A model generated the notes under the pieces. It was not told where the DNA came from, made no database searches, and saw nothing but the letters and a program-made list of their open reading frames with translations. 64,000 nt of DNA, taken from Escherichia coli. Its GTDB lineage: Bacteria > Pseudomonadota > Gammaproteobacteria > Enterobacterales > Enterobacteriaceae. Both the position numbers and the translations under genes were made by a program. Each line of letters opens with the position of its first letter. Position 1 is the stretch's first letter. Of this stretch, positions 14,158 to 51,792 are shown piece after piece. The stretch lies in NCBI RefSeq assembly GCF_003018255.1, contig NZ_CP027440.1. The stretch is one strand, 5' to 3'.

Positions 14158-14207
14158 GCTGAGTTAAATAACAATTAGCCGGAACAATAAATAAAAGGGA
14201 ACACTAT

Positions 14208-14465
14208 ATGAAAACGATTTTCACCGTGGGAGCTGTTGTTCTGGCAACCTGCTTGCTCAGTGGCTGCGTCAATGAGCAAAAGGTCAATCAGCTGGCGAGC
14301 AATGTGCAAACATTAAATGCCAAAATCGCCCGGCTTGAGCAGGATATGAAAGCATTACGCCCACAAATCTATGCTGCCAAATCCGACGCTAACAGAGCCA
14401 ATACGCGTCTTGATGCTCAGGACTATTTTGATTGCCTGCGCTGCTTGCGTATGTACGCAGAATGA
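14208..14465 (+). CDS. yqhH: Small outer-membrane lipoprotein YqhH (85 aa, Lpp-like)
   Basis: ORF track 85 aa; lipobox LLSGC; coiled-coil Lpp-like sequence. Confidence 0.8.
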
Positions 14466-14475
14466 TAAAAAAATT

Positions 14476-14508
14476 CCCGGCAGCATTCTGTTACCGGGGA
14501 TATTTTTT
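14476..14508. terminator. Probable terminator between yqhH and ygiQ
   Basis: Seen in sequence: cccgg...ccggg hairpin followed by atattttttaa. Confidence 0.4.
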
Positions 14509-26875: not shown

Positions 26876-27586
26876 TTACTCATTAATCAATTTTTTGATA
26901 TGTTCTCTAATCTCTAACAACCTCATACCATAAGAGATGAATTTATAATCATCTGTATCACGCGCAGGCAAATTATTAATTAAACAAATAAAAAAGCCCA
27001 AATCTCGTTCAACACCACGATTATATCTAATACCAGCCATAATATACTGCTCATTCGTCATATACAGTGTTGCCGAAGAGGGATAATCAAAAAGGACAAG
27101 ATCTCTTAAATAAGTAGCAGCAATTTGAAAGGTAAAATCATCCTCCATTAGGCATGTCGCTAACTCTAACTGATTTCTGGTAGTTAATTCTGAAGGGTCT
27201 AGACCTAGAGTAATCGCTGCGGTTCGTATTTGTATACCCATTGAGCCAAATGATGTTTTATTTTCAGGCATATCTAACAATCCCATCATTCTTTTTGTTT
27301 CATATATCTGAAACTTATAATTTTCAGGCATACCTCCTGACTCAATCCAGGCCACGCCGCCCAGTAACTCTGGACGAATTCCAGCGGCGTATGCATGTTT
27401 AATTATTTTGTCTCTATTATATTGTACATATGCATCTTTATAAGCATTTAAATAATATACTCCTGAACGGCGACGCGAATCATTTTTTCCTAACTTCCAG
27501 AGTAAAACGTCCATTTCATCCCATTTACGGAACTTCGCTTGTGGAATTGTACAATATCTATTTTTTATAGTGAGATCGCTTTTCAT
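26876..27586 (-). CDS. Hypothetical protein (236 aa from ATG; track ORF extends to a TTG at 27613); possible lysozyme-like / lytic-transglycosylase-like T6SS cargo
   Basis: ATG begins 2 nt after the hcp stop; no signal peptide; contains V-x3-E-S-x3-P (VAWIESGGMP) followed by GSMGIQIRTAAITLGL and IRYNRG, reminiscent of SLT-domain motifs (ES...GLMQ...AYNxG). The family assignment is inference only. Confidence 0.6.
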   Translation of the reverse strand: MKSDLTIKNRYCTIPQAKFRKWDEMDVLLWKLGKNDSRRRSGVYYLNAYKDAYVQYNRDKIIKHAYAAGIRPELLGGVAWIESGGMPENYKFQIYETKRMMGLLDMPENKTSFGSMGIQIRTAAITLGLDPSELTTRNQLELATCLMEDDFTFQIAATYLRDLVLFDYPSSATLYMTNEQYIMAGIRYNRGVERDLGFFICLINNLPARDTDDYKFISYGMRLLEIREHIKKLINE

Positions 27587-27588
27587 AT

Positions 27589-28068
27589 TTAAAAAATCCT
27601 TTCTTCCCAACAACTATATGATTCCGTACTCGCGATATGGTGCTTCCATGTTATATTTTTATAATTAAGAACAATGACCTCTTCCGGCTGATTACCCGCA
27701 TGTGTAATTGAGTGTGGATAACATGTCAGAATATTCGATAAATGTGCTCCTTGCAATTCAATTGTGTAAAACCTTTCAATACAACCGCCAGAATTAACTC
27801 TATAAAAATTAAATACAGCTGATAACTCTTCATTTTCAGAAAGAGCGGCATTTAATAAAGGGGAGGATTTATCTATTGGCTTGTAAAATTTTATGGGGTG
27901 ATGCACTACATTATACTCTCGACTTAAAGAATGGTCGAACTGTAAAACAAAAATTTCATCCACATGATTTATTTGATATTTATTACCAATAGATGCATAC
28001 GAACCACAACCCTCAGAGATCAAACCTTGTATTTTCCCTTTAATTGATAAGTATATGATATTTGACAT
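27589..28068 (-). CDS. hcp: Hcp family type VI secretion tube/effector-carrier protein (159 aa), orphan copy
   Basis: 159 aa, typical Hcp size; blocks HPIKFYKPIDKSSPLL and LNYKNITWKH...SYSCWEER align with canonical Hcp motifs (TPFxFTKEIDxSSPxL, ITWTY...SWNER); GGAG Shine-Dalgarno upstream of ATG; no other T6SS structural gene in the window. Confidence 0.85.
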   Translation of the reverse strand: MSNIIYLSIKGKIQGLISEGCGSYASIGNKYQINHVDEIFVLQFDHSLSREYNVVHHPIKFYKPIDKSSPLLNAALSENEELSAVFNFYRVNSGGCIERFYTIELQGAHLSNILTCYPHSITHAGNQPEEVIVLNYKNITWKHHIASTESYSCWEERIF

Positions 28069-28929: not shown

Positions 28930-29244
28930 ATGATTACAGTAATCGCAGAAATCCGTACTCGTCCTGGTCAACATCACCGTCAGGCAGTGTTGGATCAGTT
29001 TGCTAAAATCGTTCCAACCGTACTGAAAGAAGAAGGTTGCCACGGCTATGCGCCAATGGTGGATTGCGCTGCTGGCGTGAGTTTCCAGTCTATGGCACCG
29101 GATTCTATCGTGATGATTGAGCAGTGGGAAAGCATCGCGCATCTTGAAGCGCATCTGCAAACCCCGCACATGAAAGCATATAGCGAAGCCGTAAAAGGTG
29201 ACGTGCTGGAGATGAATATTCGTATCCTGCAGCCGGGGCTTTGA
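28930..29244 (+). CDS. ygiN: Quinol monooxygenase YgiN (104 aa)
   Basis: ORF track 104 aa; ABM-domain sequence recognised. Confidence 0.93.
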   Translation: MITVIAEIRTRPGQHHRQAVLDQFAKIVPTVLKEEGCHGYAPMVDCAAGVSFQSMAPDSIVMIEQWESIAHLEAHLQTPHMKAYSEAVKGDVLEMNIRILQPGL

Positions 29245-29288
29245 CATTTCTAAAAAGAGGCCGGTGCTGCTACCGGTCTCAGCCCAGA

Positions 29289-30176
29289 TTAGCCATTCTT
29301 TCTTCCCGTTTTCAGTCCTCGATGGAAATCGTTAATTCGCTTAATGGTTTTAACCGCACGCTGCGGCACTGCGGAAGCTACCGACCAGACAATCATTTCC
29401 AGACACAACAATACCGTACCATGTAGCGGCGTTTTCCCTTTTTCATCCCCGCGCGGAACATGAATCACGATACTGGCGTCTTTGCTAAAACGTGAATCCA
29501 GCGCGTTTGTCAGCAAAATAACAGGGATCCCTAGCCGCCTCGCCTCACGAAGCGTTGTCAGCCCTTCCCGGTGCGCTGATTTTTGCGCCATCATGATCAG
29601 AACATCGCCACGTTGAAGCGCGATCAGTTGCTCGGCAAGGCCAATACCCGTACGGTTTAGTGCCGTGGCAGGCAAACCTATGCGGTTGAATAGTCGTGCG
29701 GTATAGTCCGCCAGAATACCCGAAGCGCCAATGCCAAAAATTGCGACTTGCCGTGCCTGCACCAACAACGCTACAGCTTGCGCAAGCGCGTGGCGGTTTT
29801 CAGGCTCTGACAGGACATTACAGGTATACAAATGCCCTTCAAGAACAAAGTCGATTGCGGTGTTAACATCGCTCGTCAAGTTACTCACCGTCGTAGACAT
29901 CTTTTCGCTGGAACTAAGGGCTGGACCAAGCCACTGTTCCAGAGTGCGTTTCAGATCACGCAGCCCGGCAAACCCCAGGGCCTGTATAGCCCTGATAACT
30001 GTGGCATCGGAAGTGTTCAACGTGGCCGCAATTTCCATCGCCGTTTGCTCGAGTACCACTTCACGATGCTCATTAATGTAGCTGGCGACAACTCTTAACC
30101 CAGGCGTTAACTGACTCGCGCGAGTGCGAAAACGCTCACCAAAAATATCAACCCGCACTTTATCTTTCTGGATCAT
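29289..30176 (-). CDS. RpiR/MurR-family transcriptional regulator (HTH_6 plus SIS domain), 295 aa
   Basis: N-terminal RpiR-type HTH (TSDATVIRAIQALGFAGLRDLK) and C-terminal SIS domain; the start ATG overlaps the stop of the upstream substrate-binding gene in an ATGA arrangement. Confidence 0.82.
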   Translation of the reverse strand: MIQKDKVRVDIFGERFRTRASQLTPGLRVVASYINEHREVVLEQTAMEIAATLNTSDATVIRAIQALGFAGLRDLKRTLEQWLGPALSSSEKMSTTVSNLTSDVNTAIDFVLEGHLYTCNVLSEPENRHALAQAVALLVQARQVAIFGIGASGILADYTARLFNRIGLPATALNRTGIGLAEQLIALQRGDVLIMMAQKSAHREGLTTLREARRLGIPVILLTNALDSRFSKDASIVIHVPRGDEKGKTPLHGTVLLCLEMIVWSVASAVPQRAVKTIKRINDFHRGLKTGRKNG

Positions 30177-31120
30177 TTAGCCTCCGGTAGAGGTCGCCCT
30201 GCAATTTGTGATTGTATCTGCGCAGCCATCAGCCCCAGAGATGCAAAGGAGTTAGAAATTGCCTCTTCACGAGAAATCAGCACATAACGCCCGGAACGAC
30301 AGGCAGTCAGAAACTGACACCATCCCGGCATGACTTTTTCCATTGCTGCCAGCTCATCCTGAGGTTTACCACCGGTGTCACCGCGCCAGGTTGCAAAAAC
30401 AAAATCGGCATCCAGTTCAGGTAAACGCTCCGCGCTCACATCCATTCGCCCACCTTCAGGAATGCTCTCAATCAGCGGCGGAAAACGAAAACCCGCATCG
30501 CGTAATACCCGCCCCAGCGAATGATAGCTATGCATCACATTAATTTTTCCCTGGTTTGCCTGAATCACCGATACCGTTATTTTTTGGCTGTCCAGCGTCG
30601 CCTTCAGCGCATTGATTTGTGCCTGATAGCGGCGTTCAAGTATCGCCAGCTGCGACTGCGTTCCTGTAAGTCCTGCCAGCTTGCGATAGATTTCTGGCGC
30701 ACCCCCTTTGAGATGATCAATGCTCACCGTGGGCGCAATTTTTTCAAGTTGTTCAATGGGCGTATTACGGGTCGGTTCTGTGATGATCAGGTCAGGCTTT
30801 GCCGCCACAATCGCTTCAATATCAATATCAGCGGTACCAATAAAGGCGATCGATGAATTATCAAAGTCGACACCTGTCAATAACGCGCCAGATCGAATGA
30901 AATGGCTACCGTCAGGCCGAGTTCGCCCGTGGCTGGCGACAGGAGGTACACCGAGCTCAATCAGAGGAATAGTGATATCAAGATCGTGTAAAGAGACAAT
31001 TCTCTTTGGATGAGCAGGAACAGTGACTTTGCGCCCTAAATCATCAGTAAATACCTGAACAGGTTCTGTTGCACGGGAAAAAAATGACAACAGTATCAGC
31101 AGAGAAAAAAATAAACGCAT
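30173..31120 (-). CDS. Periplasmic iron-siderophore/cobalamin-type ABC substrate-binding protein (FecB/FhuD-like), about 315 aa
   Basis: Start set at MRLFFSLLILLSFFSRA signal peptide with GGGAG Shine-Dalgarno (track ORF extends to 31183); class III binding-protein-like sequence; operon context with FecCD permeases. Confidence 0.82.
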   Translation of the reverse strand: MRLFFSLLILLSFFSRATEPVQVFTDDLGRKVTVPAHPKRIVSLHDLDITIPLIELGVPPVASHGRTRPDGSHFIRSGALLTGVDFDNSSIAFIGTADIDIEAIVAAKPDLIITEPTRNTPIEQLEKIAPTVSIDHLKGGAPEIYRKLAGLTGTQSQLAILERRYQAQINALKATLDSQKITVSVIQANQGKINVMHSYHSLGRVLRDAGFRFPPLIESIPEGGRMDVSAERLPELDADFVFATWRGDTGGKPQDELAAMEKVMPGWCQFLTACRSGRYVLISREEAISNSFASLGLMAAQIQSQIAGRPLPEAK

Positions 31121-31130
31121 ATAACTCCCG

Positions 31131-32180
31131 TTAAAAACTGTTCCTGCGCTGCCAGAGCAGTAGCAAAAAAAATGGTCCACCAATCAGTGAGATAATGATT
31201 CCGGCAGGCAGTTGCAAAGGCAAAAAAGCCAAACGACCAATGCTATCCGCCAGAATAACTAACAACGCCCCCGATACCGCGCTCCCCAGCAGTAATGTCG
31301 TCTGCCCGCCACGTAGAATAAAACGTGATATATGGGGTGCTATCAATCCGACAAAACCGATGTTACCAACACACGAAACGCAGACGGCTGTCAGGATTAT
31401 TGGTGCGGCGACACGTAACAACGCCAGACGAGAACTATTCACCCCTAACCCGGTTGCAACCTGATGACCAAGCAGAGCGATATCCGCCGTCCTGGCGGTG
31501 AACAGCAATAAAAGAGCGGCTGGCAACATCCAACAGGCTGAAATACCGACTAACATCCAGTTAGCTGCATGCAGGCTTCCCGATAACCACATCAATGCAG
31601 TTTGTACATCTCGAACATCTGCAGTGGTCATAAATACACCGATACCGGCGGCGAAAAACCAGGAAACACCAATACCAATCAGAACAAATCGCGGGCGGGA
31701 AATATCGCGCGCACAAAAAATCACGATTAAAGCCACCAACAAGCCACCAGCAAGACCAGCCACTGGACGCCAGAACATTCCCAGCATTGGAAACTGGAAA
31801 ATCAGCCACAGCACCGCCACGCTACATCCTTCTTTGACGCCGATTAAACCAGGATCGGCAAGGCCGTTACGCGCAATGGATTGCATCGCGGCCCCCGCCA
31901 TACCTAACATGGCTCCGCATAGCAATGCCATGATGACTCTCGGCAAGCGAATATCCTGCACAATATAACGTGCGTCTGTGCTTACGTTTTCTGGAGCAAA
32001 CAACGCTCGTCCTACTTCCGATGCCGGGACAGAAAAAGAACCCTGCATCAGACCGAATATCAGTATTCCAACCGCAAACAGAAACAGCCCACCAAGCAAC
32101 AGCAGATTTTTAGGGCGTACCAGTGTCGAAAACTTACCAACACGTAGTGGGCGTAGCCCGACGTTCATTATCCGACTCAT
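31131..32180 (-). CDS. FecCD-family ABC permease (349 aa)
   Basis: Polytopic membrane protein; FecCD/BtuC-type sequence; start overlaps the upstream permease stop. Confidence 0.85.
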   Translation of the reverse strand: MSRIMNVGLRPLRVGKFSTLVRPKNLLLLGGLFLFAVGILIFGLMQGSFSVPASEVGRALFAPENVSTDARYIVQDIRLPRVIMALLCGAMLGMAGAAMQSIARNGLADPGLIGVKEGCSVAVLWLIFQFPMLGMFWRPVAGLAGGLLVALIVIFCARDISRPRFVLIGIGVSWFFAAGIGVFMTTADVRDVQTALMWLSGSLHAANWMLVGISACWMLPAALLLLFTARTADIALLGHQVATGLGVNSSRLALLRVAAPIILTAVCVSCVGNIGFVGLIAPHISRFILRGGQTTLLLGSAVSGALLVILADSIGRLAFLPLQLPAGIIISLIGGPFFLLLLWQRRNSF

Positions 32181-33160
32181 TTGAACATCCTCGTCGCCAT
32201 AATGACAAAAACAGGCGCACCAACTAACGCCGTCATGACACCGGTCGCTAACTCATGGGGCGTGAAAAGCGTCCGGGCAATAATATCTGCCAGTAATAAC
32301 AAAAGTGCGCCGACACAAGCTGAAAGAGGGAGCAGAACGCGCAGATCCGCTGATACCAGACGCCGGACAATCTGCGGTACCAACAGGCCGACAAAACCAA
32401 TGGGGCCAGCAATCGATACGGCTGCGCCACAGAGCAACGCGATCGCAAGCAGGGTAAATGTTCGCGTGCGGAGTACAGAGACGCCCAGCCCCTGCGCCAT
32501 GCGATCGCCCAGTGCCAACATGTTAAGGTAGGGTGCAAGGTAAAGGGCTAACACAAATCCCCCCAGAGAAAACCAGGCGGACGTACCCAGCGTCGCCCAA
32601 TCCTGCCCCGCTAAATCACCTGCTAGCCATGTCCGCATCGCCAGCAGTGTTTGTTCGTCAAGAATCAGGATTGCAGCCGTTATTGAGGACACGAACGCCG
32701 ATAGCGCCACGCCGCATAAAGTAACTTTCATTGGCGTTACCCCTGAACGCCCTGCGGAGGAAAGCAGCAATATCAACAGGAACAATAACGCGCCCCCCGT
32801 AGATGCCAGCAGTGGGCGTCCAACCGGAAAGGCCAGTCCAAGCGCACTGGCGGCAACGACAGCAAGAGCGGCTCCGGCATTTAAGCCTAAAATATGTGGC
32901 TCCCCCAATGGGTTACGAATGACAGCCTGCAACAAAGCACCAGCAACACCAAGAGAAGCACCGGTAAGCAATGCTGCCGCTAAACGCGGCAAACGGAGTC
33001 TTACAATTACGTTGTGATCGAAGTTTTGCGGATCAAAATGAAGAAATGCCTGCAACACCGTTTGTGGTGCAATAAATCGGGCACCAATCCCTGGATATAC
33101 CACGCATCCCACCAGCAGTAAGGCGAGGAAAATTACAGTAACCAGCCCTGTGCGCATCAT
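32177..33160 (-). CDS. FecCD-family ABC permease (327 aa)
   Basis: Polytopic membrane protein paralogous to the adjacent permease; start overlaps the ATPase stop. Confidence 0.85.
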   Translation of the reverse strand: MMRTGLVTVIFLALLLVGCVVYPGIGARFIAPQTVLQAFLHFDPQNFDHNVIVRLRLPRLAAALLTGASLGVAGALLQAVIRNPLGEPHILGLNAGAALAVVAASALGLAFPVGRPLLASTGGALLFLLILLLSSAGRSGVTPMKVTLCGVALSAFVSSITAAILILDEQTLLAMRTWLAGDLAGQDWATLGTSAWFSLGGFVLALYLAPYLNMLALGDRMAQGLGVSVLRTRTFTLLAIALLCGAAVSIAGPIGFVGLLVPQIVRRLVSADLRVLLPLSACVGALLLLLADIIARTLFTPHELATGVMTALVGAPVFVIMATRMFK

Positions 33161-33966
33161 ACTTTTTCTACACCACGAAACGGCATGAAGAACGGCTTTC
33201 CCGTCAGAGGATTTATTGATGCGTGAACATCAACGTCAAAGACAGCTTTTACCAGCTCAGGCGTGCAATGCTCCCCCTCATTCAACACACGCACCACTTT
33301 CCCCTGGCGTAAAAATATCAACGTATCGCCATAATTGACGGCAAAATTCAGATCATGCAACACCACGACGACTGTACGCCCGTGATGACGCGTTAAATCA
33401 TGTAATAACTCAAGAATTTCAACCTGATAACGTAAATCAAGCCAGGTTGTGGGTTCATCCAGCAGGATATAAGGCGTCTTTTGCGCCAACACCATCGCAA
33501 TCCAGCAACGCTGGCGCTGCCCACCAGAGAGTTTTTCAACAGGTAAATGTGCAAACTCCTGCGTACCGGTTAATTTCAGGGCCTCTTCCACCGCCTGCTC
33601 ATCGGCGTCGCTCCATTGACGTATGAAATTTTGCCAGGGAAAACGCCCACGCGACACCAGTTCATAAACGGTTAAGCCCTCCGGCAATAATGGCGACTGC
33701 GGCAAGATCCCAAGTCTACGGGATAACGCTTTCGTTGGTTGCTCGTGAATCGCTTTGCCATCAAGCAATATCGAACCGCCCATAGGTTGCAAGATACGTG
33801 CAATGGTGCTGAGCAACGTCGACTTTCCACAGCCGTTTGCCCCAACCAGAACGGTCATTTTTTCTGTGGGAACGGAGAAAGAAACACCATCAACAATGAT
33901 CTTCTTGTGATACCCGGCAGAAACATTGTCGAGGATCAGCCCCTGCCCTTTTGCGTTATGTGCCAC
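33157..33966 (-). CDS. ABC transporter ATP-binding protein (FecE/FhuC-like), 269 aa
   Basis: Walker A GANGCGKST, ABC signature LSGGQRQR, Walker B ILLDEPT; GTG start. Confidence 0.88.
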   Translation of the reverse strand: MAHNAKGQGLILDNVSAGYHKKIIVDGVSFSVPTEKMTVLVGANGCGKSTLLSTIARILQPMGGSILLDGKAIHEQPTKALSRRLGILPQSPLLPEGLTVYELVSRGRFPWQNFIRQWSDADEQAVEEALKLTGTQEFAHLPVEKLSGGQRQRCWIAMVLAQKTPYILLDEPTTWLDLRYQVEILELLHDLTRHHGRTVVVVLHDLNFAVNYGDTLIFLRQGKVVRVLNEGEHCTPELVKAVFDVDVHASINPLTGKPFFMPFRGVEKV

Positions 33967-34220
33967 GTGTACGCCAACTTAATCAAAGACAAACAAAAAT
34001 AAAACTCATTCTCCTTTGAGAGTTTGACGCCACAAAATGTAGTAGTCAAGCAGTTAAAAGCCACACAAAAACAAGGTAAATAACAGGTAAAATATTTTTA
34101 TACATAAAAATAAAAACATTAAATATCAATAAATTAAAAGCAATCAAATTGTATAAGCCTTTCATAAAAACACATGTAGCAATTTTTTGTTATTTCTCAT
34201 TTACTACTACATTACTGCGT

Positions 34221-34240
34221 GATTGAATGATTCTCAATTA
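34221..34240 (+). promoter_or_regulatory. Putative Fur-box-like element upstream of the TonB-dependent receptor gene
   Basis: gattgaatgattctcaatta partially matches the Fur consensus, about 100 nt upstream of the receptor start within an AT-rich divergent promoter region; weak. Confidence 0.3.
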
Positions 34241-34339
34241 CATATCCGATGGCGAAATAACAAACGGATAGTGCTTAGTGAGCAATAAGAAACAATTTTC
34301 ACTCGCGACAATCCGCGAGTTTTTGGGATAACAGACTAA

Positions 34340-36481
34340 ATGGCTATGTTCACACCTTCATTCTCAGGACTCAAAGGTCGGGCGCTCTTTTCACTGCTTT
34401 TTGCGGCACCGATGATTCATGCAACAGACTCTGTAACGACCAAAGATGGCGAAACAATCACTGTTACAGCAGATGCAAATACCGCAACTGAGGCAACCGA
34501 TGGTTATCAACCTCTGAGCACCTCCACGGCGACATTAACCGATATGCCGATGCTGGATATCCCGCAGGTGGTCAATACGGTTAGCGATCAGGTTCTGGAA
34601 AACCAGAATGCGACGACGCTGGATGAGGCGCTTTATAACGTCAGTAACGTGGTACAGACCAATACATTAGGCGGGACTCAGGATGCTTTTGTACGCCGTG
34701 GGTTTGGCGCAAACCGGGATGGCTCCATCATGACCAACGGTCTGCGAACCGTACTTCCTCGCAGTTTCAACGCCGCCACAGAACGTGTGGAAGTGCTAAA
34801 AGGCCCGGCCTCCACGCTGTATGGCATTCTCGATCCTGGCGGACTGATTAACGTCGTGACCAAGCGCCCGGAAAAAACATTCCATGGTTCGGTTTCAGCC
34901 ACCTCCTCCAGTTTTGGTGGCGGCACTGGGCAACTTGATATCACAGGTCCCATTGAAGGCACTCAGCTGGCGTATCGCCTTACCGGGGAAGTGCAGGATG
35001 AAGATTACTGGCGAAACTTCGGTAAAGAGCGCAGTACATTTATTGCCCCGTCACTCACCTGGTTTGGTGATAATGCAACAGTAACCATGCTCTATTCCCA
35101 TCGGGACTATAAAACTCCGTTCGATCGTGGAACGATTTTCGACCTTACGACGAAACAGCCCGTAAACGTTGATCGAAAAATACGTTTTGACGAACCGTTT
35201 AATATTACAGATGGTCAGTCCGATCTGGCGCAACTCAACGCAGAATATCATCTCAATAGCCAGTGGACAGCGCGCTTTGATTACAGCTACAGCCAGGATA
35301 AATACAGCGATAATCAGGCGCGTGTTACCGCGTATGATGCAACGACAGGAACACTGACACGGCGTGTTGATGCAACTCAGGGATCTACCCAGCGTATGCA
35401 TGCTACTCGTGCGGATCTGCAAGGGAATGTTGATATTGCCGGATTCTATAATGAGATTCTGGGTGGGGTGTCATATGAATATTATGATCTTCTGCGTACA
35501 GATATGATTCGCTGTAAAAAAGCTAAAGATTTCAATATCTACAACCCTGTTTATGGTAATACCAGCAAATGTACAACGGTTTCGGCGTCGGACAGTGATC
35601 AGACGATCAAACAGGAGAGCTACTCAGCGTATGCACAGGACGCACTCTATCTGACCGATAACTGGATTGCCGTCGCCGGGATCCGCTATCAGTATTACAC
35701 GCAGTATGCGGGTAAAGGCCGTCCTTTTAATGTCAATACTGACAGCCGCGATGAACAATGGACTCCCAAACTGGGGTTGGTCTACAAACTGACGCCATCG
35801 GTATCCTTATTTGCCAATTATTCGCAAACATTTATGCCGCAGTCGTCAATTGCCAGCTACATTGGCGATCTTCCACCGGAATCATCTAATGCTTACGAAG
35901 TCGGGGCAAAATTCGAGCTATTCGATGGTATCACCGCAGATATTGCGCTGTTTGATATCCATAAACGTAATGTGTTGTATACCGAAAGTGTTGGTGATGA
36001 AACCATTGCCAAAACGGCAGGCCGTGTTCGTTCAAGAGGGGTAGAAGTCGACCTTGCGGGAGCATTAACTGAAAACATTAATATCATTGCCAGCTACGGC
36101 TATACCGATGCTAAGGTTCTGGAAGATCCTGATTATGCAGGTAAACCATTGCCGAATGTTCCTCGTCATACCGGTTCGCTATTCCTGACCTATGACATTC
36201 ATAACATGCCTGGCAATAACACACTGACGTTTGGCGGTGGTGGACATGGCGTAAGCCGTCGTTCGGCAACCAATGGGGCTGACTATTATCTGCCAGGCTA
36301 TTTTGTTGCCGATGCCTTCGCCGCATACAAAATGAAATTGCAGTATCCGGTCACACTGCAATTAAACGTCAAAAACCTGTTTGATAAAACGTATTACACC
36401 TCTTCCATCGCCACAAATAATCTGGGGAATCAGATTGGCGATCCGCGTGAAGTGCAATTCACGGTGAAAATGGAATTTTGA
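34340..36481 (+). CDS. TonB-dependent outer-membrane siderophore-type receptor (713 aa)
   Basis: Signal peptide, TonB-box-like ETITVTA, plug and barrel sequence blocks, C-terminal aromatic residue (..VKMEF); divergent from the ABC importer operon (arrangement resembles fit-type iron uptake loci; symbol not assigned). Confidence 0.9.
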   Translation: MAMFTPSFSGLKGRALFSLLFAAPMIHATDSVTTKDGETITVTADANTATEATDGYQPLSTSTATLTDMPMLDIPQVVNTVSDQVLENQNATTLDEALYNVSNVVQTNTLGGTQDAFVRRGFGANRDGSIMTNGLRTVLPRSFNAATERVEVLKGPASTLYGILDPGGLINVVTKRPEKTFHGSVSATSSSFGGGTGQLDITGPIEGTQLAYRLTGEVQDEDYWRNFGKERSTFIAPSLTWFGDNATVTMLYSHRDYKTPFDRGTIFDLTTKQPVNVDRKIRFDEPFNITDGQSDLAQLNAEYHLNSQWTARFDYSYSQDKYSDNQARVTAYDATTGTLTRRVDATQGSTQRMHATRADLQGNVDIAGFYNEILGGVSYEYYDLLRTDMIRCKKAKDFNIYNPVYGNTSKCTTVSASDSDQTIKQESYSAYAQDALYLTDNWIAVAGIRYQYYTQYAGKGRPFNVNTDSRDEQWTPKLGLVYKLTPSVSLFANYSQTFMPQSSIASYIGDLPPESSNAYEVGAKFELFDGITADIALFDIHKRNVLYTESVGDETIAKTAGRVRSRGVEVDLAGALTENINIIASYGYTDAKVLEDPDYAGKPLPNVPRHTGSLFLTYDIHNMPGNNTLTFGGGGHGVSRRSATNGADYYLPGYFVADAFAAYKMKLQYPVTLQLNVKNLFDKTYYTSSIATNNLGNQIGDPREVQFTVKMEF

Positions 36482-36483
36482 TC

Positions 36484-36509
36484 AAAAAAGCCCGGTATGT
36501 TTACCGGGC
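36484..36509. terminator. Bidirectional terminator between receptor gene and GPH symporter gene
   Basis: Seen in sequence: A-run, then gcccggta-tgtt-taccgggc hairpin (T-run on the minus strand). Confidence 0.5.
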
Positions 36510-36588
36510 TGAGACTGATGACAAACTCCAAATTGTCTGATGCGCTACGCCCATCAGATCTACCATAGAAATTCAATATATTAAATTT

Positions 36589-37920
36589 TCATATATTTTT
36601 AGGCTGTAAACACACCTTAATCTGTTCGTAATATTCATTATTAATCAGATAAAATCTCATGATGAGTCCGGTAATCAGGTTAAGTATCGCGGGAATGATC
36701 GTCATTAACAGGCAGATCCCCCACAACGCCTGTGGTGTTTGTTCTACGCCAGGTTGATAGTCCATAAACGCTAAAGCGATTCCGATAAACCCTCCCGCCA
36801 GTCCCATACCAAACTTTTGAAAAAAGAGAATCCCGCCAAATGCCAGTCCAGAAACACGTTGCCCCGTTTTCATTTCACCATAATCCACTGACTCAGCAAT
36901 GGATGCCCAATAAATGGGAAGCTGAATATCAGTCAGAAAGGTCACCACAATATAAAATGTAAAAGCTAACACTATAGAATTTGGTTGCACGAAATACATC
37001 GCACCACCCACCACGAACGCCAGTAATTGGGTATAACGAAATATTTTTATTTTGTCGTAGAGTCGAGTAAGCCAGGTGCAAGCGATCATAGCCAGAACAG
37101 AGGCGATCACGCCTGAAGTTAAAAACGGTGAAATTAAAGCATCCCCACCATTCAGGTAATATTTTGCATAATATGCAGCGACAGAGTTACGAATAATCCC
37201 GCCAAACATAATGATCGCAATTACAGCGCCCAAAATGAGCCATTGATCATTTTTGATCAGTAACCGAAACTGCGCGGCCATACCGAGACTGGGTTTTGGA
37301 TGGTAGATGCGCTCTCTCACGCTAAAAAAACAATACAGGCATAAACACGTTGCCAGAATTCCCATTGCCCCCATTGCTATTTGATAACCCAGTTGTACGT
37401 TATTCTTCCCAAGATACATTGCAGATAAAGGAACAATAATTGTTACGGCGAACATGGCAATTTTTGTCATAACAAAACGATAACCATTGGCGCTCAATCG
37501 CTCTTGTGGATCATCCGTGATAACGCTGATTAATGAAACATAAGGAATAGCGATTAACGTATAGGTCAAGGTAAGTAACACATAGGTAGCCCAAGCCCAT
37601 AAAAGCTTAACTGAATAATCGGTATTAGGTGTGGTGAACATCAACCAAATGCTTATCCCAAACGGTATTGACATAAAAAGCAACCACGGCCGATATTTTC
37701 CCCAACGTGTATTCGTTCTGTCTGTCATTGTTCCCACAACTGGATCAATCACAGCATCAAGGATACGTACAGAAAATAACAGAATACCTAAGTCGACGGG
37801 TTTCAGACCAAATACATCCGTGTAAAAATAAGTGATGATCATGGCCAAAGACATCATTACTATCGCGATAGCCATATCACCAGCACCAAAACCTATCTTT
37901 TCATTTATTGTAAGTTTCAT
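36589..37920 (-). CDS. MFS/GPH-family glycoside-pentoside-hexuronide:cation symporter (about 443 aa)
   Basis: 12-TM-like hydrophobic profile with MelB/GPH-like N-terminal region (GFGAGDMA, DxxxDPxxG-like DAVIDPVVGTMTDR); start set at the ATG for MKLTINEK. Confidence 0.8.
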   Translation of the reverse strand: MKLTINEKIGFGAGDMAIAIVMMSLAMIITYFYTDVFGLKPVDLGILLFSVRILDAVIDPVVGTMTDRTNTRWGKYRPWLLFMSIPFGISIWLMFTTPNTDYSVKLLWAWATYVLLTLTYTLIAIPYVSLISVITDDPQERLSANGYRFVMTKIAMFAVTIIVPLSAMYLGKNNVQLGYQIAMGAMGILATCLCLYCFFSVRERIYHPKPSLGMAAQFRLLIKNDQWLILGAVIAIIMFGGIIRNSVAAYYAKYYLNGGDALISPFLTSGVIASVLAMIACTWLTRLYDKIKIFRYTQLLAFVVGGAMYFVQPNSIVLAFTFYIVVTFLTDIQLPIYWASIAESVDYGEMKTGQRVSGLAFGGILFFQKFGMGLAGGFIGIALAFMDYQPGVEQTPQALWGICLLMTIIPAILNLITGLIMRFYLINNEYYEQIKVCLQPKNI

Positions 37921-38206
37921 ACACAGCACTCATTGATTACGTGAACTTATATTAAAAACAAATATATCTGAACTCATTCAGCACATAACTTTACGAGTGA
38001 GCATAAATGCATTGGTTGATACCACAACAAACCATTGAGTCAATATTGAGCAACATCACATAAAAACCAATTTCACTTAATCTCATGATTTATATATTTA
38101 ATTGTGGTTTTTTCTGTTTTATGTCACAGATAGTGAACAAGCACCATGCGTAATAAAAGTTAAAGAATGTAGAGTTGGTATCAACCACTTGAAATGAGGC
38201 TTTGTC

Positions 38207-38959
38207 ATGATAAAAATTTATAAAGCCAGTAAAGGTCAGCTAAAGCATCGTGAAATCTTTGATGAAATAAAGAAAAAAGTAGATAACGGTGAATGGAAAG
38301 AAGGCAAAGCCATACCGACAGAAAGGGAATTGTCAGAATATTATTTAAGTAGCAGAACAACTATTCGAAAGGCAATAGAAAGTCTTAAACAACGCGGCTA
38401 CCTGCATAGTGTCCACGGGCAAGGAACATTTGTATTGCCTTCTCGTAGTAGAGAAAATCATTTATTGCATAGTTTTACCGACGATATTAAAGCTCGAGGT
38501 GGTATACCAGCACAGAATATTCTTGAGATAGGCTATGTTCCTGTCAGTGATGTTATCAGAAAAAATCTCGACCTGGATATCCATATCCAAACCGTATTCT
38601 GTATAAAACGCGTTCGCTATATGGGAAGTACCCCCCTGGGTATTCAGACATCATGGCTTGCATTAAATGACAGGCAAGAAATAACCCAAGAAGATCTGCT
38701 GGCGACGGGTTCGCTCTATATTTTACTGGAAGAAAAACTCGCTATTAAACCTTTAGAAGCAACAGAAATTATCTCTGCCCGGCTTCCCTCGCCCCTTGAG
38801 CGTCAATTACTGGAACTGACTGCCGATGATGTCGTATTAAGTTGTACCCGCGTCACGTTATCCGTGGAACGCAAACCAATGGAGTATGTAGAGATGGTGT
38901 ATCCCGCAAGCCGGTACTCCTACAAAGCACGAATTACAAAAGACAGTTTTAGCGTGTAA
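38207..38959 (+). CDS. GntR/HutC-family transcriptional regulator with UTRA effector domain (250 aa)
   Basis: N-terminal GntR winged HTH (PTERELSEYYLSSRTTIRKAIESL) and a C-terminal domain of UTRA length. Confidence 0.85.
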   Translation: MIKIYKASKGQLKHREIFDEIKKKVDNGEWKEGKAIPTERELSEYYLSSRTTIRKAIESLKQRGYLHSVHGQGTFVLPSRSRENHLLHSFTDDIKARGGIPAQNILEIGYVPVSDVIRKNLDLDIHIQTVFCIKRVRYMGSTPLGIQTSWLALNDRQEITQEDLLATGSLYILLEEKLAIKPLEATEIISARLPSPLERQLLELTADDVVLSCTRVTLSVERKPMEYVEMVYPASRYSYKARITKDSFSV

Positions 38960-38972
38960 CAGAGAGAATATT

Positions 38973-40049
38973 GTGAACAAAATAGAACAAGCTGTAATTT
39001 ATAACAAAATATTAGGTTCTTTAGCCTGCGCAGGTATGGGCGATGCATTAGGCGCAGCGACTGAACTCTACAGCATTGATGAAATAAAAGCTCAATGGGG
39101 AGGTTTTTTAAATGCCTTTGTTTCTCCTCCTGCCGATACATTCGCTGGCTCATTAAATGGTATTGCGGGACTTATCACCGACGATTCCAGCCAAATGTAT
39201 GTGTTTTCAGAAGGGTTAATTGAGGCTGGATTTGATAACTTCACCAATAATGACTGGTTAGCTTGTCTTCTGCGTTGGGCCGATATGCAGCCCTACGCAA
39301 ATTATAAAGGCCCCACAACAGAACAAATCGTCAAGGCACTAAAAGAAGGTAGACCAACAAACACCATTGGGCGTATTGGAACATCTTCTCGTCAGGCACC
39401 CAATGTCGGCACCACGAATGGAGCAGGAATGCGTGTAGCCCCTGCAGGATTGATCTGGCCAGGCAAGAAAGAAAAAGCGTGTCACCTGGCGCTAATAACT
39501 TGCCTACCTTCGCATGACACCAATATTGCGATTGCCAGCGCTTGCGCCATCGCTGCGGCGACATCACAAGCTATGTTACCAGAAGCTTCGCTCACATCAT
39601 TACTGGACGCCGCAATCTGGGGAGCGAATTACGGCGAACGCCTGGCCAAACAATATGCACGATGTGTCGCAGGGCCATCTATCGCCATGCGCATCCAACT
39701 TGCAGCGGACATCGCCAGACGAGCCAATGACCTGGAGTCTTGTCTGCGAGAAATGGAAGGTTTGGTTGGTAACTCTGTTGCCGCCCATGAATCCATTCCT
39801 GCGGCAATCGGTCTATTGCTGTACTGCAAAGGAGAACCCTGGGAAACCATTCATGCCTGCGCCAATATTGGCAATGACACCGATAGCATCGCTACGATGG
39901 CAGGCGCAATTGCAGGGGCATGGCGCGGTTTTGATGCGCTCCCTGAAGATAAATATGCCTTTTTCCGCGCCGTAAATAATAAAGATTTCGATATTGAAGC
40001 GATCGCATCGGGTCTGACATTGCTTGCATTAGAGGCACAGGAGAAATAA
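38973..40049 (+). CDS. ADP-ribosylglycohydrolase (ARH/DraG) family protein (358 aa)
   Basis: N-terminal GSLACAGMGDALGAATE and C-terminal NIGNDTDSIATMAGAIAGAW blocks match the two conserved ARH-family metal-binding regions. Confidence 0.8.
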   Translation: MNKIEQAVIYNKILGSLACAGMGDALGAATELYSIDEIKAQWGGFLNAFVSPPADTFAGSLNGIAGLITDDSSQMYVFSEGLIEAGFDNFTNNDWLACLLRWADMQPYANYKGPTTEQIVKALKEGRPTNTIGRIGTSSRQAPNVGTTNGAGMRVAPAGLIWPGKKEKACHLALITCLPSHDTNIAIASACAIAAATSQAMLPEASLTSLLDAAIWGANYGERLAKQYARCVAGPSIAMRIQLAADIARRANDLESCLREMEGLVGNSVAAHESIPAAIGLLLYCKGEPWETIHACANIGNDTDSIATMAGAIAGAWRGFDALPEDKYAFFRAVNNKDFDIEAIASGLTLLALEAQEK

Positions 40050-41047
40050 TGAACATGCCAGCCCGTACTCCTGTTATGCCATTAGCGCAAACTCGTGAGG
40101 AGATAAATGCTACGGCGGCATCGTTACGCCATTTGGCAGCTATCTGGGGTGAATGTTTTTCTACTTTTCAGCTCGATAAACGTGCTGTTGAACGCGTCTG
40201 TATAGTGGGATCGGGCGACTCCTGGACGGTGGCACTATGTGCCGCCGCCTGGCTGGGGAAATACACACATCTGTTTTGTTACGCATTGCAAACGTGGGAT
40301 TTTCTTCAGACTGATTTAACCCGTTATCAGAAAGAAACGTTAATCATTATTCTCAGTGCAAGTGGCAGACCATCAATGACCGTTGACGCCCTCTGCCACG
40401 CAGTATGCTCAAACGCGCAAGTGCTGGGTGTGACGAATTGCCCTGGAACACCATTTTGCGCAATAACAGAAAACATGCTCTATACATGGGCGAATAAGCA
40501 GGGTATTCCAACGCAAAGTAGTAGCGTCACACTTTATGCCCTCCTGCGCTTAGCGCAAAAATTATGTCCAGGCTTAACACCACTGCAGATTGAAGATGAT
40601 TTGGAAGGGAAATTTAGCCAGATTAATCAGCACTGGCAGCAAAAGAAGCGCCATTTTTACCAACAAAAAGAGATAACGTTTCTTGGGAGTGGCTTAAGTT
40701 GGGGACTGGCAATATCGGGGAGCAATTTACTTTCTTGCGGCCCACAGATTCGTGCGACAGCCCTTCCACTGGAAGAATTTTATCATTCATTACGCTTACA
40801 TCAGGCTGGTGTCGGTCAGCATTATATTTTACTACCAGCCACATCCTGCGAGTCCCCATTTTACCTTGCAACCCAAAAAGCAATTGTTGAACAGGGAGCG
40901 ACAGCAGAATTAATCAGTTTTATACCTGACGCCAGTGAGTCCAACAATTTATTTCTGGTCATGCAGTGGTTATATGAAATGTGCTGGAATTTAAGTTGTG
41001 ATTATGTCGACGCAGGCGGGCAACGCGTTAGCCATAGGGAGAAATAA
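40049..41047 (+). CDS. Double-SIS-domain sugar-phosphate isomerase/deglycase-like protein (FrlB/AgaS-like), 332 aa
   Basis: Two SIS-like segments (VCIVGSGDSW...IIILSASGRPSMTVDA and ITFLGSGLSWGLA...); its start overlaps the ARH stop by 1 nt (TAATG). Confidence 0.72.
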   Translation: MNMPARTPVMPLAQTREEINATAASLRHLAAIWGECFSTFQLDKRAVERVCIVGSGDSWTVALCAAAWLGKYTHLFCYALQTWDFLQTDLTRYQKETLIIILSASGRPSMTVDALCHAVCSNAQVLGVTNCPGTPFCAITENMLYTWANKQGIPTQSSSVTLYALLRLAQKLCPGLTPLQIEDDLEGKFSQINQHWQQKKRHFYQQKEITFLGSGLSWGLAISGSNLLSCGPQIRATALPLEEFYHSLRLHQAGVGQHYILLPATSCESPFYLATQKAIVEQGATAELISFIPDASESNNLFLVMQWLYEMCWNLSCDYVDAGGQRVSHREK

Positions 41048-41051
41048 GACT

Positions 41052-41966
41052 ATGAAGAAATTTGATGTCGCCGCTTTAGGCAGTGGAAATATAGATATTT
41101 TTTTATCTATCCCGTCACTCCCCACTCGTGGCGGTAAAGTTGTCGGGACACGTCTGGGTGAACAAGCTGGCGGCACAGTCGCCAACAGTGCCTGTGCGAT
41201 GGGACAACTGGGTCTCAATGTGGTATCTGTTTCATGTGTGGGCAATGATCATTCAGCCTCGATCATTCTTGATGGATTTAAAAAATATCATGTAAATTGT
41301 GATTTCGTTCAGGTAATTCCGGAATTGATTGCCAATACCGCGATTATCTTTATTGATGAATTAGGTGAAAAAACGTTGGTTTACTCGCCTGGTAGTGATC
41401 ATGAGTGGGATAAAGAAAAAGCCCTGCAGGCAATTGCGCAAAGCCGTTATTTTTATACGATGCCAGCAGATATCGAGAAATTTCGTATGCTGGCCGAATA
41501 TTCCCGTAGCCAGATGACAAAAGTTGTCGTTGATATTGAGCCTCATATCATTGCAACACCTGAACACCTTGCCAGAATTTTACACCTTGCTGATATTGCG
41601 ATATTTAATTATGACGGTTTTATTCGTGGCTATGCAACAGAGCCAGATTTTACACTTCTGCATGATATACAAGACGAGTATCAACTTGACGCTGTCGTGG
41701 TTACGCTGGATGTTAGGGGAGTAATTGCAGTCAAAGGCAATGAGCAAGTAAAAATAGGTAGTTATACAATTCCCGTTATTGATACCACAGGCGCTGGAGA
41801 TACTTTTAATGGTGCATTTGTTTATAGCTTAATAAAAAATATGCCCTTAATTGAAGCACTAAAATTTGCTTCTGCCACAGCAGCAATAAATATTACTGCA
41901 TTAGGTGCCAGAGGTCATCTGCCGACACCATCGGAGGTTAATCTTTTTCTTTCACAACACGACTAA
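41052..41966 (+). CDS. PfkB-family carbohydrate kinase (ribokinase-like), about 304 aa
   Basis: PfkB signature DTTGAGDTFNGAF near the C-terminus and a glycine-rich N-terminal lid; start set at MKKFDVAALGSG, 5 nt after the SIS stop. Confidence 0.85.
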   Translation: MKKFDVAALGSGNIDIFLSIPSLPTRGGKVVGTRLGEQAGGTVANSACAMGQLGLNVVSVSCVGNDHSASIILDGFKKYHVNCDFVQVIPELIANTAIIFIDELGEKTLVYSPGSDHEWDKEKALQAIAQSRYFYTMPADIEKFRMLAEYSRSQMTKVVVDIEPHIIATPEHLARILHLADIAIFNYDGFIRGYATEPDFTLLHDIQDEYQLDAVVVTLDVRGVIAVKGNEQVKIGSYTIPVIDTTGAGDTFNGAFVYSLIKNMPLIEALKFASATAAINITALGARGHLPTPSEVNLFLSQHD

Positions 41967-41993
41967 AATCATATATATACAAAGGTAAATATC

Positions 41994-43118
41994 ATGAAAA
42001 TAAGATATGCCGCTATTTTTCTGGCATTACCGCTGTTATGCACAACAGCGCAGGCAAACAGTTTTCTTCATTATGCTGGGGAGTTTAACTTCCGGACGGG
42101 AGAAAAGCAGAACAATGTCACAATCGCGGGGCTATCAGCCATCACATTTGATGCAAAAAAAAATATTTTCTATGCTATTAACGATAGCAGAAACAATAAT
42201 AAAGAAGGAGATGCCAGTCTTTATACACTAAAAATACAGGTATCATCCAGGGGCATTGAGCAAGTGAATTTTCTCAACCAGCGTCCACTGCTTGATGCAA
42301 AACAGCAACCTTTCGTGACCAATACGGTGGATGCCGAAGGTCTGGCCCTGACACACAATGGTAAATCATTACTCTGGAGTTCGGAGTTAGGTGCTCCACT
42401 GCGTCTGAGCACTCTCGATGGCGTAATGGAGAAAGATTTTACGTCTTTATTTCCTGCTCGCTTTAATATTAGTTCTGACAAAGAGAGCAGCAATGGTATT
42501 CGCAGCGGCAACGCCTGGGAGGGCCTGACAGTTACACCAGATGGAAAATCACTTTTTATCGCCGTTGAAAGCAGCCTTAAACAGGATGGGCCTATTGCAA
42601 GTCCAATAAATTCAGGCACATCACGCTTACTGCAATTTTCTATAGATGCAGACGGTCGACCTTCAAAGCAATTGCATGAATATCTCTATATTACTGATCC
42701 TGTTCCGCAAGTGAGTAAGTTCGGTATTAATGATAATGGCGTATCCGAGGTCATGGCGCTGAATGATCACCAATTGTTGGTCATCGAACGTTCCGGCAGA
42801 AACGTCAGTGCTGGGTTCAATGACTGGGATTACTCTGTCAGAGTTTATATGGTCGATTTAACTGCTGCCAGCGATATCAAGAATATTGACAGTCTGCAAG
42901 ATTGGTCCAATAAATCCACGTTACAACCCGTCAGTAAAAAATTATTAATTGATTTTGCTGATTACACTTCCTCTGCGGATTGTATTGAAGGGGTAACCTT
43001 CGGTCCTCTGATTGATGGGCATACATCGTTAATATTTGTATCTGATAATAATTTCCAGCCCCATCAACAGACGAAATTTTATCTATTCATTGATAAGGAA
43101 AACAAACTTAAAATTTAA
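41994..43118 (+). CDS. Secreted beta-propeller phytase-like / esterase-like protein (374 aa) with signal peptide
   Basis: Signal peptide MKIRYAAIFLALPLLCTTAQA; repeated EGLxxTxDGKSLFIAxE and IEGVT blocks resembling beta-propeller phytase-like proteins; family assignment is tentative. Confidence 0.5.
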   Translation: MKIRYAAIFLALPLLCTTAQANSFLHYAGEFNFRTGEKQNNVTIAGLSAITFDAKKNIFYAINDSRNNNKEGDASLYTLKIQVSSRGIEQVNFLNQRPLLDAKQQPFVTNTVDAEGLALTHNGKSLLWSSELGAPLRLSTLDGVMEKDFTSLFPARFNISSDKESSNGIRSGNAWEGLTVTPDGKSLFIAVESSLKQDGPIASPINSGTSRLLQFSIDADGRPSKQLHEYLYITDPVPQVSKFGINDNGVSEVMALNDHQLLVIERSGRNVSAGFNDWDYSVRVYMVDLTAASDIKNIDSLQDWSNKSTLQPVSKKLLIDFADYTSSADCIEGVTFGPLIDGHTSLIFVSDNNFQPHQQTKFYLFIDKENKLKI

Positions 43119-43213
43119 AGTCAAACTATAGATACAAAAACATTCTAATACATGGAATCATCAGATGGTGTATTCGATCACCAAAAATATATTTTATTCT
43201 GAAAGGGAATATT

Positions 43214-43948
43214 ATGAATTCTTATCTTAAAATATCACTTGCAGGAATAACAATGTTATCCTGCCTGTCACCTACACTAGTCTGTGCAGAACAGCCGCAT
43301 GGATTTATTGATTATCGCCATGAGTATCTTGATGATACTCGCACCCACGCGGACCGCGTTGAATTTGGTACATTTTTTAGTAATGGTATCGGTTTGATGG
43401 GAGAATTACGCTATAACACCGATGAAGGTGATAAAGATAAGTGGGACCCCTCACAATTTGGCAATAACGGAACAGGATTATCTGTTGTTTACCGCTTTAA
43501 GCCGCTGGATGACAAAAAATTCTGGTTAGAACCCATGTTCTGGCTTGATACCACGCAATATTGGTCAACTTACGAATATGGTCTTTCTGCGGGTTATGAC
43601 TTCAGCAAAGAATGGAAAGTTTCAGGTCGGTTTCGTTATGACATGGATAAAGCCACCGATAAATCCAAAGGTTATGGCAACGATGATCGTAATAACCGCC
43701 GTTACGATGTGTGGATCGACTATCGACCACAAAAAACCAACTTCCAATATCAGTTAAACCTGGTCTATTACAATAATGGTTATTTAACCTGGAATGATGG
43801 CCATAAAAACTATACCGCATCATTTAAAGTAGGGTACAAAATGGGATCGTGGATACCCTATATGAGTATTGCGGATTATAAAGGTGTGGATAAAACATCA
43901 AGTAATCGCCAAATCCGCTGGCGCTGGGGTCTGACTTATACTTTCTAA
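43214..43948 (+). CDS. KdgM/NanC-family small outer-membrane porin (244 aa)
   Basis: Signal peptide, about 220-aa mature protein with alternating amphipathic beta-strand pattern rich in Y/W/R/D, C-terminal ...WGLTYTF aromatic terminus; resembles oligogalacturonate/sialic-acid-specific porins. Confidence 0.7.
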   Translation: MNSYLKISLAGITMLSCLSPTLVCAEQPHGFIDYRHEYLDDTRTHADRVEFGTFFSNGIGLMGELRYNTDEGDKDKWDPSQFGNNGTGLSVVYRFKPLDDKKFWLEPMFWLDTTQYWSTYEYGLSAGYDFSKEWKVSGRFRYDMDKATDKSKGYGNDDRNNRRYDVWIDYRPQKTNFQYQLNLVYYNNGYLTWNDGHKNYTASFKVGYKMGSWIPYMSIADYKGVDKTSSNRQIRWRWGLTYTF

Positions 43949-43961
43949 TCTGGAATAAAAA

Positions 43962-44831: not shown

Positions 44832-44839
44832 TCAACGAC

Positions 44840-44868
44840 AACCCGGCAAAACACATGTTTGCCGGGTT
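44840..44868. terminator. Hairpin between the island's last gene and parE
   Basis: Seen in sequence: aacccggcaaa-acacatg-tttgccgggtt, 11-bp perfect stem; no strong T-run. Confidence 0.4.
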
Positions 44869-44875
44869 AAGATTA

Positions 44876-46771
<1,896 letters not shown>

Positions 46772-50968: not shown

Positions 50969-51115
50969 TGACGACGACGGGGCTTCGGCCCCGTCTGAAC
51001 GTAAGGCAACGTAAAGATACGGGTTATCTGCCGCATTCTTCCCCCTTCTCGCTTCAATTTCGACCAGCCATCCTCTATTCTGATGGGTATTTACCACTGG
51101 TCCCGGAAGACAAAA

Positions 51116-51787: not shown

Positions 51788-51792
51788 TACCG

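Follow-up and report, generated by a model that had tools for sequence, protein, structure and literature searches.

The fit locus of Escherichia coli, probably a ferric-chelate importer under dual repression by Fur and FitR, carries paired candidate FitR boxes at its divergent promoters

A 64-kb stretch of Escherichia coli DNA (the window, in which all positions below are counted) carries at 29289-36481 a gene for a TonB-dependent receptor, divergent from an ATP-binding cassette (ABC) importer operon that ends in the gene of an RpiR/MurR-family regulator. Because the gene order and products are as published and the periplasmic binding protein matches the structures PDB 3BE5/3BE6, we identify this locus, at the level of sequence, as the fitA/fitBCDE-fitR system of E. 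coli. We consider it likely that fit, which is under published dual repression by Fur and FitR, imports a ferric chelate that the bacterium does not make itself, and that FitR acts on a pair of ACTACTACA boxes at the two divergent promoters. The genes are arranged as follows:

29289-30176, minus strand: fitR, RpiR/MurR-family repressor with HTH_6 and SIS domains, last gene of the operon
30173-31120, minus strand: fitE, periplasmic siderophore-binding protein (open reading frame and RefSeq)
31131-32180, minus strand: fitD, FecCD permease (RefSeq start 32168, longest open reading frame start 32180)
32177-33160, minus strand: fitC, FecCD-family permease (open reading frame, RefSeq and family scan)
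33157-33966, minus strand: fitB, ABC ATPase with best match FecE, GTG start, first gene of the operon
33967-34339: fitA-fitB intergenic region, 373 bp
34340-36481, plus strand: fitA, TonB-dependent siderophore receptor, divergent from fitB

FitE residues 19-315 match 3BE5/3BE6 over the full length (E=1.9e-194), and that entry is named Ec-FitE (PMC10553834). Ouyang and Isaacson (2008) described fit as the receptor gene fitA, the importer genes fitB-E and the regulator gene fitR; the promoter that separates fitA from fitB is bidirectional (PMC2593036). The window shares with the published system the gene set, the order, the divergent promoter region, the FitE structure match and a FitR with helix-turn-helix (HTH) and SIS domains, and we found no difference in a comparison that left the i484 reference sequence outside and in which the window strain differs from i484. 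Positions 29000-36700 have 100% DNA identity to the E. coli chromosome NZ_AP045067.1, and the full locus was found in 1870 of 5426 complete E. coli genomes. fitA is a reported marker of B2, extraintestinal and adherent-invasive E. coli, and in K. pneumoniae it is induced by iron limitation. FitR is an HTH and SIS autorepressor: its overexpression represses fitA and fitB, knockout of fitR derepresses both, and the purified protein shifts the intergenic fitA-fitB fragment in electrophoretic mobility shift assays; derepression is 23-fold when fur is mutated, 2.2-fold when fitR is mutated and 52-fold when both are, Fur and FitR acting independently (PMC2593036).

The locus and its regulation by FitR are already known from the literature of 2006-2008, and nothing is new in the locus itself; the operator, Fur-box and leader-hairpin assignments are additions of the present analysis. 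The initial annotation, made from the letters alone, said that the layout resembles fit-type loci, which named the correct kind but understated the case, as the locus is fit itself and the link to the regulator was published in 2008 (PMC2593036). It rightly called the pairing of such an importer with an RpiR regulator unusual for iron systems of E. coli, a pairing that the same study had already described. Its remark that the substrate is unknown also holds: a 2018 paper reports it as unknown and as not being enterobactin (PMC5907654), and our literature search on the Fit substrate and on links between RpiR regulators and siderophores yielded nothing beyond this statement.

Open reading frames, RefSeq and domain scans agree on the siderophore-type receptor on the plus strand and on the divergent ABC importer operon that had been annotated at these positions, and the RpiR/SIS regulator gene closes the operon as described. 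Specifically, the ATGA at 30173-30176 is common to the fitE stop and the fitR start (a 4-nt overlap), with GGAGG 4 nt 5' of the ATG; the junction reads GAG GCT AAA TGA for fitE and ATG ATC CAG in the +1 register. From this overlap we infer that the translation of fitR is coupled to that of fitE. fitB and fitC overlap by 4 nt as well, and so do fitC and fitD if the longest fitD open reading frame is taken. The permeases, the ATPase and the binding protein match Fec/Fhu/Fep family models, and in the family scan no Fit protein reached an equivalog cut-off. FitA consists of a Plug domain (residues 72-168) and a TonB_dep_Rec barrel (240-680) only, passes the TIGR01783 model (375.7 bits against a cut-off of 223.5), has a TonB-box-like ETITVTA at residues 38-44, and has FoxA, FetA and FhuA as its nearest solved structures (E around 1e-48). 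The FitA domain scan found no N-terminal signalling (STN) domain, and the annotation of the locus no sigma or anti-sigma genes. The genes exbB and exbD, whose products are the energy-transducing TonB partners that would be needed by FitA, lie in the window at ~6400-7565, 27 kb from fit, a closeness that is probably coincidental chromosomal proximity.

To compare the locus across species, we used a FitR alignment to scan a single genome of each species, which gave 80 loci, and mapped the six Fit proteins onto them by tblastn; in all, the comparison covers ~85 loci. The layout of the window, with fitA divergent from fitBCDE-fitR, was found in Escherichia, Enterobacter, Kosakonia, Phytobacter, Citrobacter, Klebsiella, Raoultella, Kluyvera and some Erwinia and Pantoea. 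The pairing of fitE with fitR is not due to chance: among 57 loci with both genes, 54 have them side by side, overlapping by NTGA in 39 and separated by a gap of -1 to +15 nt in 15. Loci L040 and L043 have a 3-kb insert with three extra genes between fitE and fitR, and at L049 no candidate fitR start could be placed. In a second layout (Pantoea, Serratia, Erwinia and Rahnella; L038, L047 and L052-L080, for example L067 at 6271-10870), a FitR orthologue (66-69% identical) is encoded divergently from a different receptor, which is 35-39% identical to FitA and is followed by a ferrichrome/ferrioxamine-type binding protein; neither a permease nor an ATPase is present at these loci. A FitR relative of 45% identity closes a co-directional fitA-B-C-D-E operon (L094) in the 70% GC genome LT907988.1, which we presume to be that of Orrella dioscoreae, a betaproteobacterium. 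Two contigs, of 63% and 60% GC, encode relatives of 42% and 38-40% identity, respectively, each of which adjoins the N-terminus of a TonB-dependent receptor. A relative of 36% identity (P0139) belongs to an unrelated peptide/sugar ABC locus, and on the short contigs L089 and L091, which carry distant FitR relatives, scans for boxes and neighbour families were uninformative. Across ~80 loci in 17 genera no gene beyond the fit set is conserved, and a search for biosynthetic or accessory genes was empty; as judged by gene content, fit appears to be a stand-alone importer module.

We extracted 50 full-locus intergenic regions and aligned 15 that are diverse at the level of genera. The alignment has sharply conserved blocks amid otherwise free sequence. 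In the window, the elements of this region are:

34200-34211, plus strand: fitA-side box TTTACTACTACA, a -35-like TTTACT with ACTACTACA, in 50/50 full-locus intergenic regions
34038-34050, minus strand: fitB-side box CTTGACTACTACA, a -35-like TTGACT with ACTACTACA, in 49/50 intergenic regions
34038-34046 and 34203-34211: the ACTACTACA boxes within these
34021-34026, minus strand: putative fitB -10, CAAACT
34220-34228, plus strand: putative extended -10 of fitA, TG-n-TTGAAT
34175-34180, plus strand: upstream inverted half-site TGTAGC, 28 nt 5' of the fitA-side box
33995-34013, minus strand: fitB Fur-like box GAGAATGAGTTTTATTTTT, 13/19 to GATAATGATAATCATTATC, downstream of the putative -10
34223-34241, plus strand: fitA Fur-like box TTGAATGATTCTCAATTAC, 11/19, overlapping the extended -10

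Both boxes are present in 49 of the 50 full loci. In the window they are inverted relative to each other, lie 165 bp apart and overlap both -35 hexamers, and the 9-mer ACTACTACA occurs twice in the whole 64 kb, both times in the fitA-fitB intergenic region. In 1.55 Mb of related loci it occurs 140 times, against ~12 expected (an estimate for a random 9-mer on both strands). At both promoters the -35-like TT(T/G)ACT stands 17 nt from the -10 hexamer, with hexamer scores of 8/12 for fitA, which has the extended -10 TG in addition, and 7/12 for fitB; we place the promoters here because these positions are conserved. The block TTGAATGATT[C/A]TCA, in the region of the fitA -10 and the Fur-like box, is found in 50/50 intergenic regions, and TGTAG recurs at offset -28 or -27 in 51/70 receptor-side promoters (33/50 full-locus intergenic regions). 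We suggest that the ACTACTACA pair is a candidate FitR operator.

The box also accompanies FitR relatives (38-69% identity) that adjoin other TonB receptors. In the second layout the receptor promoter is nearly identical to the fitA promoter, next to FitR orthologues in Pantoea, Serratia and Erwinia, and the receptor-side module, from the box to the Fur-like block, stands 5' of the different receptor in 20/22 loci. In the 70% GC locus L094, TTTACTACTACA precedes fitA and an inverted TGTAGTAGT lies 124 bp upstream, with no divergent gene; the box is also found before the receptors in the contigs of 63% and 60% GC (L094, L088 and L090 being the loci with a box at 60-70% GC). The FitR recognition helix SDATVIRxxQALGF is identical at 12/14 positions at 45% overall identity. 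A 50-mer from the E. coli receptor promoter occurs at 1872 places in the 1870 fit-positive genomes, once per genome in nearly all and at most twice, and at none in fit-negative genomes; there is no sign of another promoter of its kind.

We also considered that the ACTACTACA boxes could be parts of sigma-70 promoters or sites of another factor, with FitR binding elsewhere in the intergenic region. The fusion of the box to a -35-like hexamer at both promoters speaks for this reading. However, bases in the spacer beside a -35 hexamer are not normally invariant, the inverted TGTAG half-site is found upstream in most receptor-side promoters, the inverted copy upstream of fitA in L094 has no divergent gene to serve, and the box stays with FitR relatives even where the DNA has 60-70% GC and the receptor genes are unrelated. 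We therefore regard this alternative as unlikely and continue with the boxes as candidate FitR sites. On the metagenome contig L088 (63% GC, 1864-2384) a third ACTACTACA box lies 3' of the FitR-like gene and before an Rrf2-family (RirA/IscR-like) gene, which might point to a connection with another iron-responsive regulator.

The distance between the two boxes clusters at 164-166, 178-181 and 183-189 bp and is 124 bp in the 70% GC locus. RccR is tetrameric and its assembly has been likened to that of MurR (PMC11014249), and NanR of S. pneumoniae is in a dimer-tetramer equilibrium; because of these precedents, it is plausible that FitR bridges the two boxes. The Fur-like boxes at 33995-34013 and 34223-34241 are predicted Fur sites. 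Both are conserved across genera, and a better Fur-like box stands in the same place in the 70% GC genome; matches to the Fur consensus are common in the 64-kb window (24 at 13/19 and 134 at 12/19).

Some loci depart from these layouts. Two tandem PstS-like (PBP_like_2) genes lie between fitE and fitR in three lineages (L043 at 6926-9992, L040, L094 at 13904-15840 and L085 at 6010-7946); the PstS-like proteins of L094 have no visible signal peptide, and the E. coli locus is without such genes. L043 and L040 also encode a 379-aa membrane protein that looks PepSY-like by eye and has no NCBIfam match. In Tatumella (L046, L048 and L049) fitBCDE-fitR and both boxes are kept and fitA is lost. In Erwinia typographi (L076) fitR and the receptor promoter are kept, and the promoter appears to drive an unannotated open reading frame of 388 aa, similar in length to the second layout's binding protein.

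The family of FitR raises the question whether its ligand is sugar-like, as the initial annotation had suggested for the transported compound or its phosphorylated catabolite. In that reading, to which we give a low probability, what is transported is a metallophore, glycosylated or derived from a sugar, that is phosphorylated after uptake, and the SIS domain of FitR senses a sugar phosphate as do those of NanR, MurR and RccR. FitR has an HTH_6 domain (PF01418, residues 15-81, E=1.9e-9), the helices of which are modelled with high confidence, and a SIS domain (PF01380, residues 138-247, E=1.3e-13). Its AlphaFold model, from a 54-sequence alignment, has a predicted local distance difference test score (pLDDT) of 92.6 and a confident SIS fold, and Foldseek placed RccR, NanR and MurR at the top, followed by SIS isomerases. 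Because these nearest solved folds bind the phosphosugars 2-keto-3-deoxy-6-phosphogluconate (KDPG), N-acetylmannosamine 6-phosphate (ManNAc-6P) and N-acetylmuramic acid 6-phosphate (MurNAc-6P), a prior for a phosphosugar is fair at the level of the family.

The pocket itself points elsewhere. In RccR the phosphate is held in a cradle of S139, S183, S185 and S188, and four conserved Ser/Thr are common to NanR, MurR and RccR (PMC11014249). In an HMMER alignment FitR has S152, A197, K199 and H202 at these positions, thus keeping only one of the four serines, together with R165, which aligns with R152 of RccR. The three replacements are invariant in an alignment of 10 orthologues, as is the stretch MMAQKSAHREG that stands in place of I-S-Q-S-G-R-S-K-D, and in the wider subfamily AYGRxYxE replaces SxSGx[ST] at the phosphate site. 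Because the FitR pocket is without the usual phosphate-holding serines, the effector could be something other than a sugar phosphate; because other pocket residues are invariant among orthologues (S152, R161, R165, Q198, H202, R203, E204 and H252), some ligand is still likely.

The neighbourhood of fit is in line with this: no kinase, phosphotransferase system (PTS) or sugar-catabolic gene is conserved beside it in the ~80 loci. In the window, a low-GC (0.40-0.44) island at 36589-45100, between fitA and parE, encodes a major facilitator superfamily (MFS) transporter, a GntR regulator, an ADP-ribosylglycohydrolase, a SIS protein, a carbohydrate kinase, a phytase-like esterase, a porin and a DUF2608 protein. 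We rejected a tie between fit and this MFS/GntR/SIS/kinase island on the ground of distribution: the island is complete in only 404 of the 5426 E. coli genomes, whereas the count for fit is 1870, and other Escherichia loci do not have it next to fit. Because the cradle is lost, no sugar gene is conserved and the island is spread independently of fit, the idea of a sugar-like cargo or catabolite is not supported, and the family label of a 'sugar-phosphate sensor' should not steer the choice of candidate ligands.

Based on these data, we propose the following working model. By analogy with their families, FitA would carry the ferric chelate across the outer membrane with the help of TonB-ExbBD, FitE would bind it in the periplasm, and FitC and FitD would bring it into the cytoplasm, driven by FitB. 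The divergent fitA and fitB promoters are under two independent repressors, Fur-Fe2+ and FitR (PMC2593036), and because fitR lies at the end of the fitBCDE-fitR operon, FitR represses its own synthesis. FitR would occupy the ACTACTACA boxes and block the -35 regions, and may bridge both boxes by analogy with its tetrameric RpiR relatives; Fur would sit on the AT-rich boxes at the fitA -10 and downstream of the fitB -10. With less certainty, the SIS-like domain may bind a small cytoplasmic molecule that lifts repression by FitR, the likeliest inducer being the imported compound or a product thereof, in which case full expression would need iron starvation and substrate together.

Several observations weigh against this model. 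The binding sites in the fitA-fitB DNA are stated as unmapped in PMC2593036, and a scan for sigma-70 promoters flagged none in the intergenic region. The box overlaps the -35 hexamer, so that promoter function explains part of its conservation. The Fur-like boxes match the consensus at only 11/19 and 13/19 positions. The helical phasing of the box spacings is suggestive, being a loose fit over few independent lineages. Beside the FitR relative of 52% identity at L084 (P0123) there is neither a nearby receptor nor a box. Finally, repression by FitR is modest (2-5x) and additive to that by Fur, and no inducer has been reported, so that feedback without a ligand is possible. In this alternative, FitR has no specific effector and is a ligand-independent brake that limits overshoot after release from Fur; the degraded SIS ligand cradle and the position of fitR at the end of the operon, the classic layout of negative autoregulation, would both agree with it. 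In contrast, the invariant residues that line the former ligand site point to a retained binding function, and in the second layout fitR is transcribed divergently, outside a transporter operon. We judge a brake of this kind to be unlikely and prefer the model in which FitR responds to a ligand.

The fitA leader carries a further conserved element:

34301-34324, plus strand: terminator-like hairpin in the leader, ACTCGCG-ACAATC-CGCGAGT with TTTT after it, 15 nt 5' of the ATG

Across distinct leaders the hairpin lies mostly at -39 to -47 and usually has a U-rich tail, while the stems vary between genera. In 44/46 leaders the best hairpin is more stable than the mean of shuffled sequences (mean ΔG -9.7 versus -5.9 for the shuffles). 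RNAalifold on MAFFT-aligned fitA leaders returned no structure because the stems are too unlike in sequence to align; z-scores for the fold of the whole leader were not significant, the signal being seen only in the position-anchored hairpin search, and the leaders of the second layout are too variable for comparison. The hairpin could be an attenuator, a stabilizing element or the place from which a short leader RNA arises.

FitR-like regulators beside TonB receptors were found in Enterobacterales, in the 70% GC genome and in high-GC metagenome contigs, and at least two different types of receptor, in distant bacteria, come with the regulator and its candidate operator. This raises a broader proposal, which we advance only tentatively: FitR may be the founder of a widespread and so far unrecognised class of SIS-fold one-component repressors that serve TonB-dependent receptors, with paired inverted ACTACTACA boxes, possible looping, and sensing of the imported metal chelate, or of a product of it that is not a phosphosugar, through a remodelled SIS pocket. 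If true, this class would gate uptake on iron starvation and the presence of the substrate, and a fur-null strain carrying a PfitA reporter would offer a direct screen for the Fit substrate. The remaining interest lies in what Fit transports and what FitR senses, and the bases of the candidate operator are now defined for mutation.

Other features of the window, at the ends of the locus and at a distance from it, are:

29261-29276, minus strand: terminator-like hairpin directly 3' of the fitR stop
36489-36510: GC-rich hairpin where fitA and the MFS gene converge, listed for the minus strand, with an A-run 5' of the hairpin on the plus strand; likely a bidirectional terminator, as judged by its sequence
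26876-28068: orphan Hcp-family type VI secretion gene and a hypothetical gene, 39% GC, between ygiZ and mdaB
~49750-52920: insertion between ygiC and ygiD of an aryl-sulfate sulfotransferase gene that brings a DsbL/DsbI pair of its own

Among known systems, fit is like Fhu, Fec and Fep of E. coli K-12 in having a TonB receptor, a cluster-A binding protein, FecCD permeases and an ATPase, and in being controlled by Fur; it differs from them in that the Fit proteins stay below the equivalog cut-offs and in that enterobactin is reportedly not its substrate. Substrate-inducible siderophore uptake has local regulators in other systems, namely FecIR for ferric citrate and the AraC-type PchR, YbtA and AlcR. 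These systems combine, like fit, Fur-repressed uptake with a second, specific regulator encoded at the locus. However, their regulators are activators, either an extracytoplasmic function (ECF) sigma factor controlled through the N-terminal domain of the receptor or AraC-type proteins, whereas FitR belongs to another family and is a repressor in the cytoplasm. Moreover, FecA-type transducers have an STN extension and accompanying sigma and anti-sigma genes, which are absent from FitA and the fit locus. The fec system is the only one of these comparators that is mentioned in PMC2593036.

The closest relatives of FitR by structure are RccR of P. aeruginosa (KDPG), NanR of V. vulnificus (ManNAc-6P) and MurR of E. 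coli (MurNAc-6P), which have the same two-domain architecture and fold. All of them, including FitR, are repressors at promoters that adjoin their own gene, and the tetramers of RccR and MurR could bridge two sites (PMC11014249). FitR is only 15-24% identical to these proteins and has lost three of the four phosphate-holding serines, and while their targets are genes of sugar catabolism, those of FitR are a TonB receptor and a siderophore-type ABC importer.

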